Virus record (IMG/VR): IMGVR_UViG_2627853910_000001
Origin: a virus
Lineage: Duplodnaviria > Heunggongvirae > Uroviricota > Caudoviricetes
Reading direction: 5' to 3' (one strand)
DNA length: 46,177 nucleotides
Each line of letters starts with the position of its first letter. Within the stretch, counting starts at the first letter, position 1. The notes under the pieces were generated by a model. That model did no database searches, had not been told where the DNA came from, and was given only the letters and a program-made list of their open reading frames with translations. Below, one piece after another: positions 2,451-43,012 of the stretch. The position numbers and the translations under genes were made by a program.

Positions 2451-3387
2451 TCAGGCTTCTGGCGCATTACAGAAAAACCAGAACGGTGCAGATATTCCGA
2501 ATAAAGATAAATTCATACAAAACACAGGGGCCTGTCGTGCATTTAGCGGTCAGACTGATATCGATGGTTCACAAGGTGCATGGTCGACAGTTGCATTTAT
2601 CTCGTGGCTGGAGAATAACGGAGCTTTCCGACATCCATACTGGATGTGTAAAGGGTCATGGTCCTATGCCAGAAACAGGGTTATTACGGATACCGGTTGT
2701 GGAAATATCTGCCTTGCCGGAGCCGTGATTGAGGTTATGGGAACCCGCGGCGCAATGACCATACGCGTTACCACGCCGAGCACGTCCAGCGGTGGCGGAA
2801 TTACTAACGCTCAATTCACTTATATTGATCATGGTGATGCTTATGCCCCCGGCTGGCGACGAGACTACAACACGAAAAACCAGCAGCCTGCATTTGCTTT
2901 AGGGCAAACAGGAAGCAGGGTTGCAAATGATAAAGCTGTTGGCTGGAACTGGAATAGCGGTGTTTATGATGCAGATATCAGCGGTGCATCGACATTAATC
3001 CTCCACTTCAATATGAATACGGGGAGCTGCCCTGCTGTACAGTTCCGCGTGAATTACAGGAACGGCGGTATTTTTTATCGTTCAGCGCGTGATGGTTATG
3101 GATTTGAGGCTAACTGGTCAGAGTTTTACACCACGACCCGCAAACCCTCTGCGGGAGATGTTGGTGCATACACGCAGGCAGAATGTAACTCAAGGTTTAT
3201 TACAGGTATTCGCCTTGGCGGTCTGTCATCTGTTCAGACATGGAATGGTCCCGGCTGGTCTGACAGGTCAGGTTATGTCGTTACGGGTTCAGTTAACGGA
3301 AACCGTGATGAATTAATTGATACAACTCAGGCAAGGCCAATTCAGTATTGCATTCATGGGACGTGGTATAACGCGGGGAGTATTTAA
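2434..3387 (+). CDS. Alternative tail-fibre C-terminal cassette (silent orientation, no own start expected)
   Basis: Begins at the crossover site with residues ([14 protein letters not shown]) matching the join in the expressed fibre (QETVNRAGNAVQKN); conserved C-terminal GTWYN motif in both. Confidence 0.7.
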
Positions 3388-3389
3388 TT

Positions 3390-3923
3390 ATGATGCACTT
3401 AAAAAATATTACTGCTGGCAACCCTAAAACAAAAGAGCAATACCAGCTAACGAAACAATTTAACATCAAATGGCTTTATACAGAGGATGGGAAAAACTGG
3501 TATGAGGAACAAAAGAACTTTCAGCCTGATACGTTGAAAATGGTCTATGACCACAACAACGTTATTATTTGTATTGAAAAGGATGTTTCAGCAATTAATC
3601 CAGAAGGCGCAAGCGTCGTTGAGGTTCCTGATATTACAGCAAATCGCCGGGCTGATATTTCTGGTAAATGGATGTTCAAAGATGGCGTAGTGGTAAAGCG
3701 AACTTATACCGAGGAAGAGCAGAGGCAGCAGGCGGAAAATGAAAAGCAAAGCCTGCTACAGCTCGTTAGGGATAAAACCCAGCTATGGGACTCACAGCTA
3801 CGGCTGGGCATCATTTCCGACGAGAATAAACAAAAATTAACCGAGTGGATGCTCTATGCGCAGAAAGTCGAATCTACAGACACCTCCAGCCTGCCAGTAA
3901 CATTTCCCGAACAACCTGAATGA
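3390..3923 (+). CDS. Tail fibre assembly protein (Tfa), partner of the silent cassette
   Basis: Paralogue of 3952-4482 (shared [12 protein letters not shown]...[12 protein letters not shown]...GKWMFKDG). Confidence 0.8.
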
Positions 3924-31725: not shown

Positions 31726-31801
31726 TGGTGGCCCCTACCGGATTTGAACCGATGACCGTGCGATTATGAGTCGCCTGCTCTAACCACTGAGCTAAGGGGC
31801 C
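31726..31801 (-). tRNA. tRNA with CAU anticodon (Ile2/lysidine-type or Met)
   Basis: 76-nt cloverleaf GGCCCCTTAGCTCAGTGGTTAGAGCAGGCGACTCATAATCGCACGGTCATCGGTTCAAATCCGGTAGGGGCCACCA; acceptor and D-arm identical to E. coli ileX-type tRNA as recalled; encoded CCA. Confidence 0.85.
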
Positions 31802-39392: not shown

Positions 39393-39407
39393 ATGGAGTC
39401 TCGACAA

Positions 39408-40061
39408 ATGACTATCTCTGTAGGTATTTTCAACGGAAAAGGCGGCGTAACCAAATCAACAATTGCCCGTGCTTTAGCAGTTGCTTATGCAAAGGCTGGC
39501 TGGAATGTATGCCTGATCGATATGGATGTGCTTAACGGAACGGTAACGCGTTGGGTACAACGCAGAATGGCCAACAATATCGAACCAGCAATCGCGGCGC
39601 AGCCGTGCGGCACACCATCACAAGTCCAGAAAATCATCGAATCAGAAGTATACGACCTGGTTATCGTTGATGGCGGTGCCTACGCATCTGAATCAGTACC
39701 GAAGCTATCTGAATTTCTGGATATGGTTATTTTGCCAACCCGATTCTCTACCGATGACCTGGAAACCACCGTTAACACTGCTCACGGCATCGTTAAAAAG
39801 GGTGTGCCAATCAAGAAAATTTGCATGGTGTTTTCCGGCGCGGCTGAAAATGAAGCTGACTATATTGAAGCCCAAGAGTACCTGGCTAATACGCCATACT
39901 TTGTTGTCGATAAGTACATTCCCCACAAGCCAGCTCTGAGCAAAGCTCAGGATAAGGGCTTAAGCCTCATTGAATGCTCATACGTTGCGCCACGCAAAAA
40001 GGCAGACGACGTTATTCAGGGGATTATCAACCAGCTTGAGGCTCTGACTACTGCCGCGTAA
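39408..40061 (+). CDS. parA: ParA-family partition ATPase
   Basis: Deviant Walker A GKGGVTKST; start set at ATG with GGAG RBS (track ORF begins 39393). Confidence 0.8.
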   Translation: MTISVGIFNGKGGVTKSTIARALAVAYAKAGWNVCLIDMDVLNGTVTRWVQRRMANNIEPAIAAQPCGTPSQVQKIIESEVYDLVIVDGGAYASESVPKLSEFLDMVILPTRFSTDDLETTVNTAHGIVKKGVPIKKICMVFSGAAENEADYIEAQEYLANTPYFVVDKYIPHKPALSKAQDKGLSLIECSYVAPRKKADDVIQGIINQLEALTTAA

Positions 40062-40104
40062 TATATAATTATAGTTTTATAGATTTATATAAGAGGGGAT
40101 ACAC

Positions 40105-40353
40105 ATGGCCGCACCATCAAAACCACCAAAGAAGAACAGCAAAGGCGTACCGCCATCGATCGAACAACCGCAGGTTTTCGACCCGACTGAAACGCCAACC
40201 AGAACCAAATCAGGTGGGGCACAAATGGCGTTTAACGTCGACCCTGAATTTAAACGCGAGTACAAAACGTTCGCCAGTTCAATGGATATGTCATTGAAAG
40301 AAGTGCTGACAAAATCTTTTGAGTTACTCAAGGCTCAATACAACCAGAAGTAA
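40105..40353 (+). CDS. Small partition partner, ParG/RHH-like centromere-binding protein candidate
   Basis: 82 aa directly after parA; disordered basic N-terminus then helical C-terminus; iteron TATAGATTTATATA immediately upstream. Confidence 0.5.
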   Translation: MAAPSKPPKKNSKGVPPSIEQPQVFDPTETPTRTKSGGAQMAFNVDPEFKREYKTFASSMDMSLKEVLTKSFELLKAQYNQK

Positions 40354-40565: not shown

Positions 40566-40750
40566 ATGTAGCCATAAAAAAGGCGGGCAACCAACCCGCC
40601 TCATTAGAGGTCAACGTCTCTTAGAAACCATCAAATTCGTCATACCGCTTTTTCATATCAACCCCGTATTGAAATCGTAACCACATCTTGTGGCTCTTAC
40701 GGTATATAAGCTACTGCAATGGTAAACAGCTATCAAATGCAGGTTGCAGT

Positions 40751-40772
40751 AAAAAAGGCCCCCGAAGGGGCC
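40751..40772 (-). terminator. Terminator GGCCCC-GAA-GGGGCC with T-run on minus strand
   Basis: GC stem; A6 on plus strand upstream gives T6 after hairpin on minus. Confidence 0.5.
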
Positions 40773-40778
40773 TAATCG

Positions 40779-40901
40779 CTACTTGCTGCTAATGTTTATC
40801 GTCACATTCAGAGCGTTATCAGTAATCTTCCAACCCTCCCCATGTGGCGTAAACAAAGCTCCAGTAACAACGATAAAAATACACATACAGTATTTTTTCA
40901 T
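40779..40901 (-). CDS. Small hydrophobic peptide (40 aa), candidate type I toxin or small membrane protein
   Basis: MKKYCMCIFIVVTGALFTPHGEGWKITDNALNVTINISSK; terminator 7 nt downstream. Confidence 0.35.
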   Translation of the reverse strand: MKKYCMCIFIVVTGALFTPHGEGWKITDNALNVTINISSK

Positions 40902-40966
40902 TGTGTGGCCCTTACAGGCCGTTTCACGGCATCTCCACCGACGAAAATGACGCGAGAGCAAGCACT

Positions 40967-40983
40967 CCGCTTGTGCTTGCGTG
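40967..40983. repeat. 17-nt direct repeat CCGCTTGTGCTTGCGTG (copy 1, in putative 5-prime UTR of small ORF)
   Basis: Identical 17-mer at 41216-41232; copy 1 sits in an 8-bp hairpin. Confidence 0.7.
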
Positions 40984-41149
40984 TACGGCAAGTGGATGAT
41001 CCTTTCCTTAAAGTCGGTGCCCGGGTGCGAATCGGCGAAAAGGCCCCAAGCCATATTACACGTCCTCGCCTTCATAATGAAGGAATAACAATTGCTTTTA
41101 TTACATGTAATTACATCCGAAGAAGTTAAAAAACTTCATTCTGCATGAA

Positions 41150-41316
41150 CTAAGGAACTAAATTTCTTTATATGAATAGTGGACTATTCACCTCAGTTGA
41201 GTAAGAATAGATACGCCGCTTGTGCTTGCGTGGTTGTTTACACAACGACGTTATGCTGAAAGGACCGCGAATCCGATCAGCACAAAAGAACCGTCCTCAA
41301 TAGGGCGGTTTTTTTG
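41150..41316 (+). ncRNA. Candidate divergent antisense sRNA carrying the 17-nt repeat, ends at terminator 41289-41316
   Basis: 17-mer at 41216-41232 on plus strand; intrinsic terminator downstream; promoter not confidently located. Confidence 0.3.
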
Positions 41317-41334
41317 TTTCTGCCTACCAATAAA

Positions 41335-41349
41335 CCCACGCTATGTGGT
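41335..41349. promoter_or_regulatory. CI-operator-like site CCCACGCTATGTGGT upstream of antirepressor operon
   Basis: 14/15 match to operator at 37979-37993. Confidence 0.4.
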
Positions 41350-41552
41350 TGTCTCTGTTAAAATCCCGCCGTATTGACATGAATGCGCCATTGGTGGACA
41401 CTTTCCGAGCCGTAGCAAAATCTACGGCCGGGATTGGCGTCCCGATAATCATCATGGCGCATACCGCGTTAGCGGTTTTTTTATGCGTAAAGCACGGCTA
41501 CACCCGAATTATGGTGGGGCGTGCGGGGGAGCCGTAAGGCTCGCCGGGTATC

Positions 41553-41840
41553 ATGATGACCGGTTACGCCAACCCTGTACGTCTCACCACCTCACTGATT
41601 GGCGTCAGCGGTGGTGATTATTCCAATATCAAAACTGGAACTATCATCATGACAAACTTACCCCATGACTATTACGTCAACCTCGTAAAGATCCTTCTCA
41701 AGAAAGCCTCATACGCCGATAAATTCCGCCTGGCTGAAATCATCGAGCGCGAAGCTATGCGCATCGCCAGCAACGATAACGCTGTTTCTGACGCAAAAAT
41801 CTCCCTCGTAACCAAAGTAGTTATGGGAGGTGCAAAATGA
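41553..41840 (+). CDS. Hypothetical protein translationally coupled to antirepressor (icd-like position)
   Basis: Stop overlaps antirepressor ATG (ATGA). Confidence 0.4.
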   Translation: MMTGYANPVRLTTSLIGVSGGDYSNIKTGTIIMTNLPHDYYVNLVKILLKKASYADKFRLAEIIEREAMRIASNDNAVSDAKISLVTKVVMGGAK

Positions 41841-43012
41841 AAACGCTTCCGACCGTTAACACCCTACAACCTATCCTGCATAACCAGCTCCCCGTTATCA
41901 CTACTGAACTACTGGCAAAGCTATACGGCACAGACGTTGATAACATCAAAAAAAATTACTCACGTAACGCAAACCGCTTTATTGAAGGAAAGCATTTTTT
42001 CAAAGTGGCTGGCGATGAGTTAAAAACTTTGCGAGTGACTTTAAGTCACTCACAAAATTTGCGGGTAGCTTTAAACTACTCACAAAATACCATCTCCCCA
42101 AAAACCCGCACCCTCATCCTCTGGACAGAACGCGGGGCTGCACGTCACGCCAAAATGCTCGAAACCGATCAGGCGTGGGATGTATTCGAACGGCTGGAAG
42201 ACTGCTATTTCAACCAGAACGCGAAAACGGCAGCGACCGTAACCGTCTCGCCAAACAATGCTCGTGAGGTCGTCGATACGCTCAACGCCAAACCGATGTT
42301 TTACATTAAGGTGTGCAATAACGAGCCACTCACAACCTCAGCCGATGTTGCCCAGGCATTCAGCACCACAAACAATTCCATCGTTATGGCCATCGATGCG
42401 TTACGCATTCCTCGCACAGCTGCGGCACGTCATTTCTTTAAAGAGCAACGACCGCTGGAAGGAAGCGACCGCGAAATAACAATCTATCGCATGACAAAAG
42501 ACGGATTTACCTTGCTCATGGAAAGTATCGACGGTCCAGGCGTGAAGGATATCAAGCTGGCCTACATTGAAGCCTTTAACGCTATCAGCAGCGTGTTAAA
42601 AACACAGTACGAGCGCGATCTGGCTAAACGACTGTACCAGGAAAAAACGATTATCCGCGCGGCAACAGAGCATAATCGGCTATTAACGGAACCGAACTAC
42701 AGGAAGGAACTAATCAAGGAGTTTGACAAGGCAACAGGGAAAACCAAAGCGGCGCTAAATCTGCCAGCAATGACTCAGGAAAATGTGATATCAGCCTTAC
42801 TTCTTGATCTACTCAGAAACGCCAGAGCACTTATCAGCTTTGACGAAAACCTGAATCCTCAACTCAAGCTACTACCACCGACAGGCAAAGTAGTCGACCA
42901 GGCTGATCACAACAGCATACTCAGCGTACTGGATGCAAACCTGCCAACCAGGACACTACAGGATCTGATAAAAACATGTGCTGATAAGCTGGCACAGAAA
43001 AGCAGACCATAA
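41837..43012 (+). CDS. Antirepressor (ORF6N/Rha-like domains)
   Basis: N-terminal ITTELLAKLYGTDVDNIKKNYSRNANRF and central PMFYIKVCNNEPLTTSADVAQAF segments typical of phage antirepressors. Confidence 0.7.
   Translation: MKTLPTVNTLQPILHNQLPVITTELLAKLYGTDVDNIKKNYSRNANRFIEGKHFFKVAGDELKTLRVTLSHSQNLRVALNYSQNTISPKTRTLILWTERGAARHAKMLETDQAWDVFERLEDCYFNQNAKTAATVTVSPNNAREVVDTLNAKPMFYIKVCNNEPLTTSADVAQAFSTTNNSIVMAIDALRIPRTAAARHFFKEQRPLEGSDREITIYRMTKDGFTLLMESIDGPGVKDIKLAYIEAFNAISSVLKTQYERDLAKRLYQEKTIIRAATEHNRLLTEPNYRKELIKEFDKATGKTKAALNLPAMTQENVISALLLDLLRNARALISFDENLNPQLKLLPPTGKVVDQADHNSILSVLDANLPTRTLQDLIKTCADKLAQKSRP

Follow-up and report, generated by a model that had tools for sequence, protein, structure and literature searches.

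What kind of element occupies positions 40751-41316 of the 46,177-nt viral DNA stretch IMGVR_UViG_2627853910_000001 (Caudoviricetes; hereafter the window, meaning the stretch at its full length), where a 40-codon open reading frame (ORF) is preceded by a 17-nt sequence that recurs further upstream, next to a terminator of opposite orientation? An earlier note made from the sequence alone had read this arrangement as a divergent pair of a type I toxin and an antisense small RNA (sRNA), and our analysis bears that out. We identify the locus, with a probability of about 90%, as a timPR-family type I toxin-antitoxin (TA) module on a myovirus-type phage-plasmid of Escherichia coli, because it has a full-length match to the ryfA RNA family, a TimP-like peptide, a TimR-like sRNA body, and a seed and target that covary among homologues. 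The note was right in kind, and the family is already known, as are its layout and mechanism: timPR has been characterised in Andresen et al. 2020 (PMC7667032), Eleftheraki and Holmqvist 2024 (PMC11228461), and Eleftheraki et al. 2026 (PMC13000454). New here are a divergent, unannotated timPR lineage that is fixed across a family of phage-plasmids, the distinct seeds of this lineage, and its co-residence with a universal chromosomal copy. Sequence comparison yields homology of both predicted RNAs and of the peptide, conservation of all structural elements, and co-variation of seed and target.

The minus strand carries the toxin half. The name ryfA is an older one for the timP mRNA, the toxin half of timPR (PMC7667032, PMC11228461, PMC13000454), and a whole-window Rfam scan matches the ryfA model RF00126 at 135.5 bits (gathering score 80; E 1e-34) over model positions 1-296 of 296; all related phage-plasmid loci match it too, at 129-145 bits. 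The predicted timP (ryfA) mRNA spans 40751-41048 (minus strand) and would be ~298 nt long, comprising a 147-nt structured 5' untranslated region (5'UTR), the 40-codon ORF and an intrinsic terminator, with its 5' end placed by the Rfam model and a hand-read promoter. The putative -10 hexamer of this promoter, TAATAT at 41053-41058 (minus strand), was read by eye from an alignment of alleles, others of which have TAAAAT or TAACAT at this place. The ORF has a terminator of its own, as the earlier note had claimed, at 40751-40773 (minus strand; AGGCCCC-UUCG-GGGGCCU followed by U6, with the stem at 40756-40773 and the T-run extending to 40751), which was found by a terminator scan and aligns with the terminator of the ryfA model.

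The timP ORF at 40779-40901 (minus strand; mRNA nt +148 to +270 including the stop codon) encodes a TimP-like small hydrophobic protein of 40 aa, MKKYCMCIFIVVTGALFTPHGEGWKITDNALNVTINISSK. Its ATG at 40901 aligns with the TimP start codon, and a Shine-Dalgarno-like AAGGG ends 7 nt upstream; a longer 98-aa ORF in the ORF listing (40779-41075, start at 41075) was rejected since its ATG lies 5' of the ryfA model start at 41048. The NCBIfam model NF040796 (toxic_TimP) aligns with positions 1-40 of 40 of the peptide (E 7e-5), and a tblastn search with the peptide recovers the annotated TimP of plasmid pGDT4 (E 1e-4, 50% identity). In end-to-end alignment the peptide is 49-51% identical to the plasmid TimPs (pGDT4 and Serratia) and 35-38% identical to E. 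coli and Shigella TimP, and nine columns of the TimP alignment are invariant (M1, C7, I8, V12, G14, A15, L16, V33 and N36). Mean Kyte-Doolittle hydropathy over residues 4-17 is 2.36, against 2.34 for E. coli TimP. Some 58 plasmids and 3 phages carry an unbroken version of the ORF at 90% identity or above. Neither the matching RefSeq plasmid record nor any related plasmid or phage record searched has a timP annotation, and the NCBI nr entry for the peptide is a hypothetical protein, which the sub-cutoff score of the peptide in NCBIfam (below) may explain; RefSeq chromosomal timP is annotated at the homologous site between sseB and sseA.

The coding capacity of this RNA bears on an alternative reading, that the minus-strand RNA acts mainly in trans as a regulatory sRNA (RyfA) tuned by the plus-strand RNA, the peptide being incidental. 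Papers treating RyfA as an sRNA of uropathogenic and avian pathogenic E. coli, in oxidative and osmotic stress and in virulence, do exist (PMC8205139, PMC13188913, PMC10664665), the mRNA is highly structured, and within the phage-plasmid family the ORF region is near-invariant at the nucleotide level. Substitutions between lineages nevertheless fall at codon positions 1, 2 and 3 in numbers of 157, 102 and 199, an excess at third positions that is as expected for coding sequence; the ORF is intact in every copy examined, its indels are of whole codons only, and toxicity of TimP in Salmonella requires the start codon (PMC7667032). We consider this alternative improbable, and it is in any case compatible with the toxin reading.

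On the plus strand, a TimR-like antitoxin sRNA of ~104 nt is predicted at 41213-41316, with a single-stranded 5' seed, two hairpins and an intrinsic terminator. The corresponding 103-nt RNA folds at -42.5 kcal/mol (z = -4.7 against shuffles), and the terminator at 41289-41316 (plus strand), AACCGUCCU-CAAU-AGGGCGGUU followed by U7, lies ~60 nt past the second copy of the 17-nt repeat. Downstream of the seed, this RNA aligns with TimR-like RNAs of E. coli, Shigella, Serratia and pGDT4 and has in common with them the hairpin UGCUG..AAGG.C....C..CAGCA and the terminator; seven sRNA pairs in this alignment (A2) are kept through changes on both sides. Because the body aligns in this way downstream of a variable seed, with compensated pairs, we regard the plus-strand RNA as a TimR homologue. 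A 29-nt core of the sRNA is identical in 8 IMG/VR viral contigs. A putative timR promoter at 41180-41208 (plus strand; -35 TGGACT at 41180-41185, a 16-nt spacer, and -10 TAAGAA(T) at 41202-41208, which reads TAAAAT in the p806883 allele) was read by hand from conserved alignment blocks, and would put the 5' end of the sRNA at ~41213-41215, at the start of complementarity as in Salmonella.

No TimR model of Rfam gives a match at gathering score here, nor at the E. coli locus. Matches of the plus-strand RNA to RNAI, Thr-leader and Phe-leader all lie far below their gathering scores and were set aside as generic resemblance of a hairpin plus terminator; ColE1 RNAI (RF00106) reaches 27.1 bits against a gathering score of 47, and the element replicates by RepA, whose gene is ~5.4 kb from the locus in the annotated record. 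A genome scan with the degenerate TimR pattern CCGCGAAYCNGAYCAGCA, which is short and GC-rich and has chance matches in high-GC genomes, returned as relevant, among the matches listed, only Citrobacter (with the locus cut at the edge) and Shigella flexneri.

The two halves are connected by the repeat. The 17-mer CCGCTTGTGCTTGCGTG is present in exactly two copies in the window, at 40967-40983 and 41216-41232, both written on the plus strand and 249 bp apart, the second of them upstream of the plus-strand terminator at 41289-41316, as the earlier note had described. The sole further match has three mismatches (chance expectation 0.16 at up to 3 mismatches), and none of 100 shuffles reached three matches. 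When 40964-40983 is compared with 41213-41232, 19 of 20 positions agree. The note's logic, that a direct repeat in DNA makes a plus-strand RNA complementary to a minus-strand leader, is also correct, and the match is exact at 17 of 17 positions. Copy 1, CACGCAAGCACAAGCGG in mRNA sense (40967-40983, minus strand; mRNA nt 66-82), is the predicted TimR target in the timP leader, where it occupies the 5' arm and loop of the 8-bp hairpin in which the note had placed it; copy 2, CCGCUUGUGCUUGCGUG (41216-41232, plus strand), is the predicted seed, with 17 contiguous Watson-Crick pairs with its own leader. The hairpin is the counterpart of stem-loop SL2, to which the TimR site was mapped by experiment in Salmonella (PMC11228461).

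This arrangement recurs in other loci. In nine loci the region upstream of each ryfA match was searched for the longest stretch shared with the leader of the same locus, and each locus has a seed/target repeat of its own. Leader nt 63-84 hold the target in the phage-plasmid loci and in those of E. coli O157, Shigella and Serratia; in pGDT4 the target is at nt 137-150. In mRNA sense, the sequence CACGCAAGCACAAGCGG of the window is replaced by CAGGCACCCCACAGTG on the E. coli O157 chromosome, GCAAGCGCGTCTCAGCG on the Shigella flexneri chromosome and AACGCAAGCGCATCCAAGTGC on the Serratia plasmid. Among seven phage-plasmid and phage copies the variable positions of the seed read CCGC, CTGT or CTGC, giving three alleles, and both repeat copies, although 250 bp apart, change alike; the two positions at which repeat copies are discordant are transitions that yield G.U pairs in the RNA duplex.

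Such co-changes, with discordance only where G.U is tolerated, fit selection on RNA-RNA pairing and argue against the view that the 17-mers are sites at the DNA level, such as a par centromere, iterons, or operators for phage or plasmid proteins. The position of these direct repeats just downstream of the parA operon, and the palindromes that overlap both putative promoters, would suit such sites. There are, however, only two copies, each inside the homologue of a known RNA and at the position of an experimentally proven interaction, and the chromosomal homologues carry unrelated sequences at both places, such that we give the DNA-site explanation a negligible probability. On the combined sequence evidence, we conclude that the 17-mer is the TimR seed plus its SL2 target in the timP leader.

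The leader itself provides a further line of evidence. Control of timP translation depends on an SL4 stem-loop that holds the Shine-Dalgarno sequence, on a 7-bp pseudoknot between upper SL1 and SL3, and on pairing of a site 2 with the 5' flank of SL4 (PMC11228461, PMC13000454), and all three elements of this published switch are present, as predicted structures, in the window. SL2, the 8-bp hairpin with the TimR site, is at 40958-40980 (minus strand; mRNA nt 69-91; GCAAGCAC/GUGCUUGC, -13.1 kcal/mol), and 98.6% of its alignment cells are paired across nine homologues. SL4, at 40907-40920 (minus strand; mRNA nt 129-142), sequesters the AAGGG at mRNA nt 136-140 (window 40909-40913); its stem GGCCU/AGGCC folds at -9.6 kcal/mol, against -12.4 to -13.5 kcal/mol in the chromosomal and conjugative-plasmid homologues, and four of its pairs are kept in all nine sequences, one of them by C-G to U-A covariation. 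Pseudoknot site 1 (CACCGAC, upper SL1, 41013-41019, minus strand, mRNA nt 30-36) is a perfect 7-bp complement of site 3 (GUCGGUG, SL3, 40936-40942, minus strand, mRNA nt 107-113), and in the alignment of nine leaders (A1) 63 of 63 cells of the predicted pseudoknot are paired, with three of the seven pairs changing on both sides. Site 2 (GCCGU, 40985-40989, minus strand, mRNA nt 60-64), which would open SL4, is a 5-bp complement of site 4 (ACGGC, the 5' flank of SL4, 40918-40922, minus strand, mRNA nt 127-131); this pairing is kept in all nine sequences, with one pair switching between G-C and A-U, and has 5 bp here against 6 bp in E. coli. Given the +3 offset in ORF start, from which the numbering relative to Salmonella is derived, the position of site 3 agrees with Salmonella G103 and G106 in the pseudoknot arm of SL3, and site 2 corresponds to Salmonella C57, C58 and G59 (PMC13000454).

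Several points weigh against this identification. Both promoters were read by hand, neither is called by a sigma-70 consensus scan of the locus, and both transcripts are predictions. The peptide scores 23 bits against the NCBIfam curated cutoff of 45 bits, a threshold set for annotation by a subfamily model, and conservation is poor in the C-terminal half of the peptide. The whole leader model is 98.8% paired, compared with 39-49% when the 3' partners are slid by 1-3 columns (and 98.0% for the classical hairpin model), but the assignment of columns, guided by the published work, was partly derived from the same nine sequences, which inflates this control.

Over the locus, the window is 100% identical to two 46,125-bp E. 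coli plasmids. RepA and ParA are annotated in the record along with a tRNA, a RelE/HigB-type TA and the full set of myovirus structural and lysis genes, which makes the element a phage-plasmid of ~46 kb. The par locus is found at 95% identity or higher in 58 PLSDB plasmids, and 58 of 58 have the timPR module beside parA, with at least 80% of the region covered; the module is also present in three Yersinia pestis phages (~92% identity) and in the eight IMG/VR viral contigs. A 48,488-bp plasmid of E. coli ATCC 25922 (NZ_CP009073.1) has it as well. The module thus looks like a fixed feature of this phage-plasmid family. We found no report in the open-access literature that links phage-plasmids or prophages with ryfA, TimR or this type I TA family, and no paper there on the Yersinia phages vB_YpM_39, vB_YpM_41 and vB_YpM_44.

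Within the family the parA operon (39393-40353) is at least 95% identical and the leader and intergenic part of timPR 82-86% identical, with the TimP ORF at 97.5% or above in almost every copy; around the seed and promoters, divergence shows a local acceleration. These patterns speak to the suggestion that the module was acquired from a chromosome or another plasmid and is now a non-functional relic in decay. Its ryfA scores are the lowest among the homologues compared (129-145 versus 214-323 bits), the peptide is below the NCBIfam cutoff, and SL4 is weaker, all of which a relic might display. But ~70 independent copies retain all structural elements, the two terminators, the ORF and the complementarity of seed and target while the spacer diverges (~84% identity) and compensatory changes arise at seed and target, and decay is therefore very improbable.

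Every E. coli host of the element has two timPR systems, because chromosomal timPR is present in 5426 of 5426 complete E. coli genomes (none has it on a plasmid, at megablast sensitivity). The TimR of the window forms 5-6 contiguous Watson-Crick pairs (8-10 with G.U) on four E. coli and Shigella chromosomal leaders, versus 17 on its cognate leader, and the chromosomal TimRs form 5-7 contiguous Watson-Crick pairs on the window leader, although these estimates ignore intramolecular structure. They are longest contiguous helices, used together with short-segment energies in place of RNAduplex runs of full-length TimR against the full leader, which gave long meaningless duplexes in all combinations. 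In Salmonella TimR, mutation of six seed nucleotides led to loss of repression (PMC7667032). Taking the few cross-pairs and this result together, we predict that the window and chromosomal timPR systems are probably orthogonal.

At the chromosomal locus, copies may have siblings, and partners may be mismatched. E. coli K-12 C600 has, next to timP, a TimR-like gene with a Shigella-type seed that mismatches its own leader (the longest shared stretch is 8 nt), likely due to sibling copies in that genome. In Shigella flexneri (3244-3587) there are two TimR-like copies with an Rfam IS128 match between them.

By homology, the module would operate as follows. The minus strand would give rise to the ~298-nt timP mRNA, and the 40-codon ORF to a protein with a hydrophobic, signal-sequence-like N-terminus that enters the inner membrane and makes it leaky. 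SL4 would hold the Shine-Dalgarno sequence, and translation would need both the SL1-SL3 pseudoknot (nt 30-36/107-113) and the site 2-4 pairing (nt 60-64/127-131). From the divergent plus strand, beginning 164 bp away, the ~104-nt TimR-like sRNA would be made, and its 5' 17 nt would pair with the 5' arm and loop of SL2; as with Salmonella TimR, SL2 would be opened, the pseudoknot destabilised, and initiation blocked without mRNA processing. Toxicity, membrane targeting and the mechanism of repression are in this account carried over from the published Salmonella homologue.

As to what such a module does for the element, our best guess, offered tentatively and at somewhat less than even odds, is post-segregational stabilisation (plasmid addiction): the plasmid-prophage would be stabilised by expression of the toxin once the less stable TimR decays, and resident chromosomal TimR of the four tested allele types should fail to neutralise the timP of the element, as the seed differs. 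We favour this role because the module adjoins par, is fixed across the family, and has a seed mismatched to the chromosomal alleles tested. Alternative roles are abortive infection or exclusion, and a non-toxic membrane function. The addiction role has several things against it. A Salmonella timR deletion, at native levels of TimP, neither slows growth nor affects P22 infection or persistence (PMC7667032), so that even in the prototype of the family killing or addiction is not an established role. In addition, a type II TA and a par system are present on the element already. It would be bolder still to suppose that the module serves addiction or exclusion and that its RNA 'address' (seed plus SL2 target) diversified so as to escape chromosomal TimR, and perhaps also that of related co-infecting phage-plasmids. 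All three alleles of the family differ from the four chromosomal alleles tested, but we consider this reading rather unlikely. If true, the base-pairing code of a type I TA would be the ground of an anti-addiction arms race, which would have left its footprint in the leader and intergenic part, more diverged (82-86% identity) than the flanking par locus (at least 95%).

For the Salmonella chromosomal copy no clear phenotype emerged (PMC7667032), and a copy fixed in a phage-plasmid family, beside partition genes and with a seed predicted to be orthogonal, offers a setting for a direct test of stabilisation and phage exclusion. The module also adds mobile-element members (phage-plasmids and conjugative plasmids) to a family so far studied as chromosomal, and bears on the view of type I systems as poorly mobile (PMC5367252). 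Some 70 public records are without annotation of the gene pair; one likely reason is the sub-cutoff score of the peptide, and the sRNA has no Rfam match.

Other features of the element lie around the module. Directly 3' of the TimR terminator is a P1-like immI region with Rfam matches at 41396-41594 (plus strand) to c4-a1b1 (42 bits, just under the gathering score), isrK (73 bits) and C4 (81 bits), followed by ORFs for 95 aa (41553-41840) and for a 391-aa ORF6N/Rha-type antirepressor (41837-43012). The latter is one intact ORF in the window, whereas the RefSeq record has a truncated ORF6N pseudogene and a separate Rha-family coding sequence, which reflects either a difference in annotation or a sequence difference outside the compared interval. 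A tRNA gene is located at 31729-31801 (minus strand, 67 bits), and the only tRNA of the matching 46,125-bp RefSeq record is annotated as tRNA-Ile. The second TA system of the element consists of a RelE/ParE-family toxin and a helix-turn-helix partner (NZ_OZ282456.1, 2312-2958), the toxin being named HigB2 in the Yersinia phage record. Palindromes overlie both putative -35 regions, CCTTCATAATGAAGG at that of timP (41069-41083) and AATAGTGGACTATT at that of timR (41175-41188), and are conserved in most alleles of the family; a search for them across the window as shared operators found neither to recur above chance, and they may be regulator sites or chance.

Among known systems, the closest are the chromosomal timP/TimR pairs of Salmonella, E. 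coli and Shigella (ryfA/STnc2070, RyfA1/RyfB1), which have in common with the window the RF00126 mRNA, the hydrophobic N-terminal half of the peptide and the SL1-SL4 leader, as well as the pseudoknot, the site 2-4 pairing, a divergent sRNA whose 5' end pairs with SL2 (16-21 nt), and a homologous sRNA body and terminator. The copy in the window differs in that its peptide is only 35-38% identical and unannotated, its seed and target are different, and its SL4 is weaker (-9.6 versus ~-13 kcal/mol). The ORF starts at +148 here and at +145 in Salmonella timP; the module lies between parA and the P1-like immI region rather than between sseA and sseB; and the inferred RNA 5' ends are 164 bp apart, with the seed copy 164-192 nt upstream of the timP 5' end in the phage-plasmid alleles and ~90 nt upstream in the chromosomal ones.

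The nearest TimP peptides are those of the Yersinia pseudotuberculosis plasmid pGDT4 (IncFII) and of Serratia sp. pJSRIV001_1, at 49-51% identity and with the motif GGW.I..N...V.IN in common. Both are likewise mobile and have a TimR-like sRNA upstream, but they are conjugative plasmids with ryfA scores of 214-235 bits, and PGAP already annotates the plasmid-borne timP of pGDT4. In pGDT4 (NC_011759.1, 3600-4153) the TimR-like seed UUCAUUGUGCGGUC is complementary to timP nt 137-150, covering the 3' arm of SL4 and the AUG, and not to SL2, and this sRNA may have been retargeted so as to block the start site itself.

The earlier note had likened the locus to tisB/istR and zorO/orzO, a comparison that holds for the divergent gene layout and not for ancestry, as there is no homology and no other Rfam family reaches its gathering score at the locus. 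Across the whole window Rfam returned only ryfA, C4, isrK and tRNA at that threshold, and a permissive scan of 40600-41450 gave nothing from the tisB/istR-1 or zorO/orzO families. The pairs tisB/istR-1, zorO/orzO, shoB/ohsC and dinQ/agrB resemble the timPR module in their divergent non-overlapping genes, their small membrane toxin and a short trans-type pairing region in the 5'UTR, at a long distance upstream of the ribosome-binding site. They need mRNA processing and a ribosome standby site, whereas timP is an unprocessed structural switch, its toxin carries a signal-sequence-like N-terminus, and its antitoxin works through disruption of the leader pseudoknot, not through occlusion of a standby site. 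For the role suggested here, hok/sok of plasmid R1 serves as the functional model; it too is a type I TA on a plasmid, in which a labile antisense RNA accompanies a stable, structured toxin mRNA, although its genes are overlapping and cis-encoded, it has a mok leader ORF and 3' processing, and it is unrelated in sequence and in peptide.

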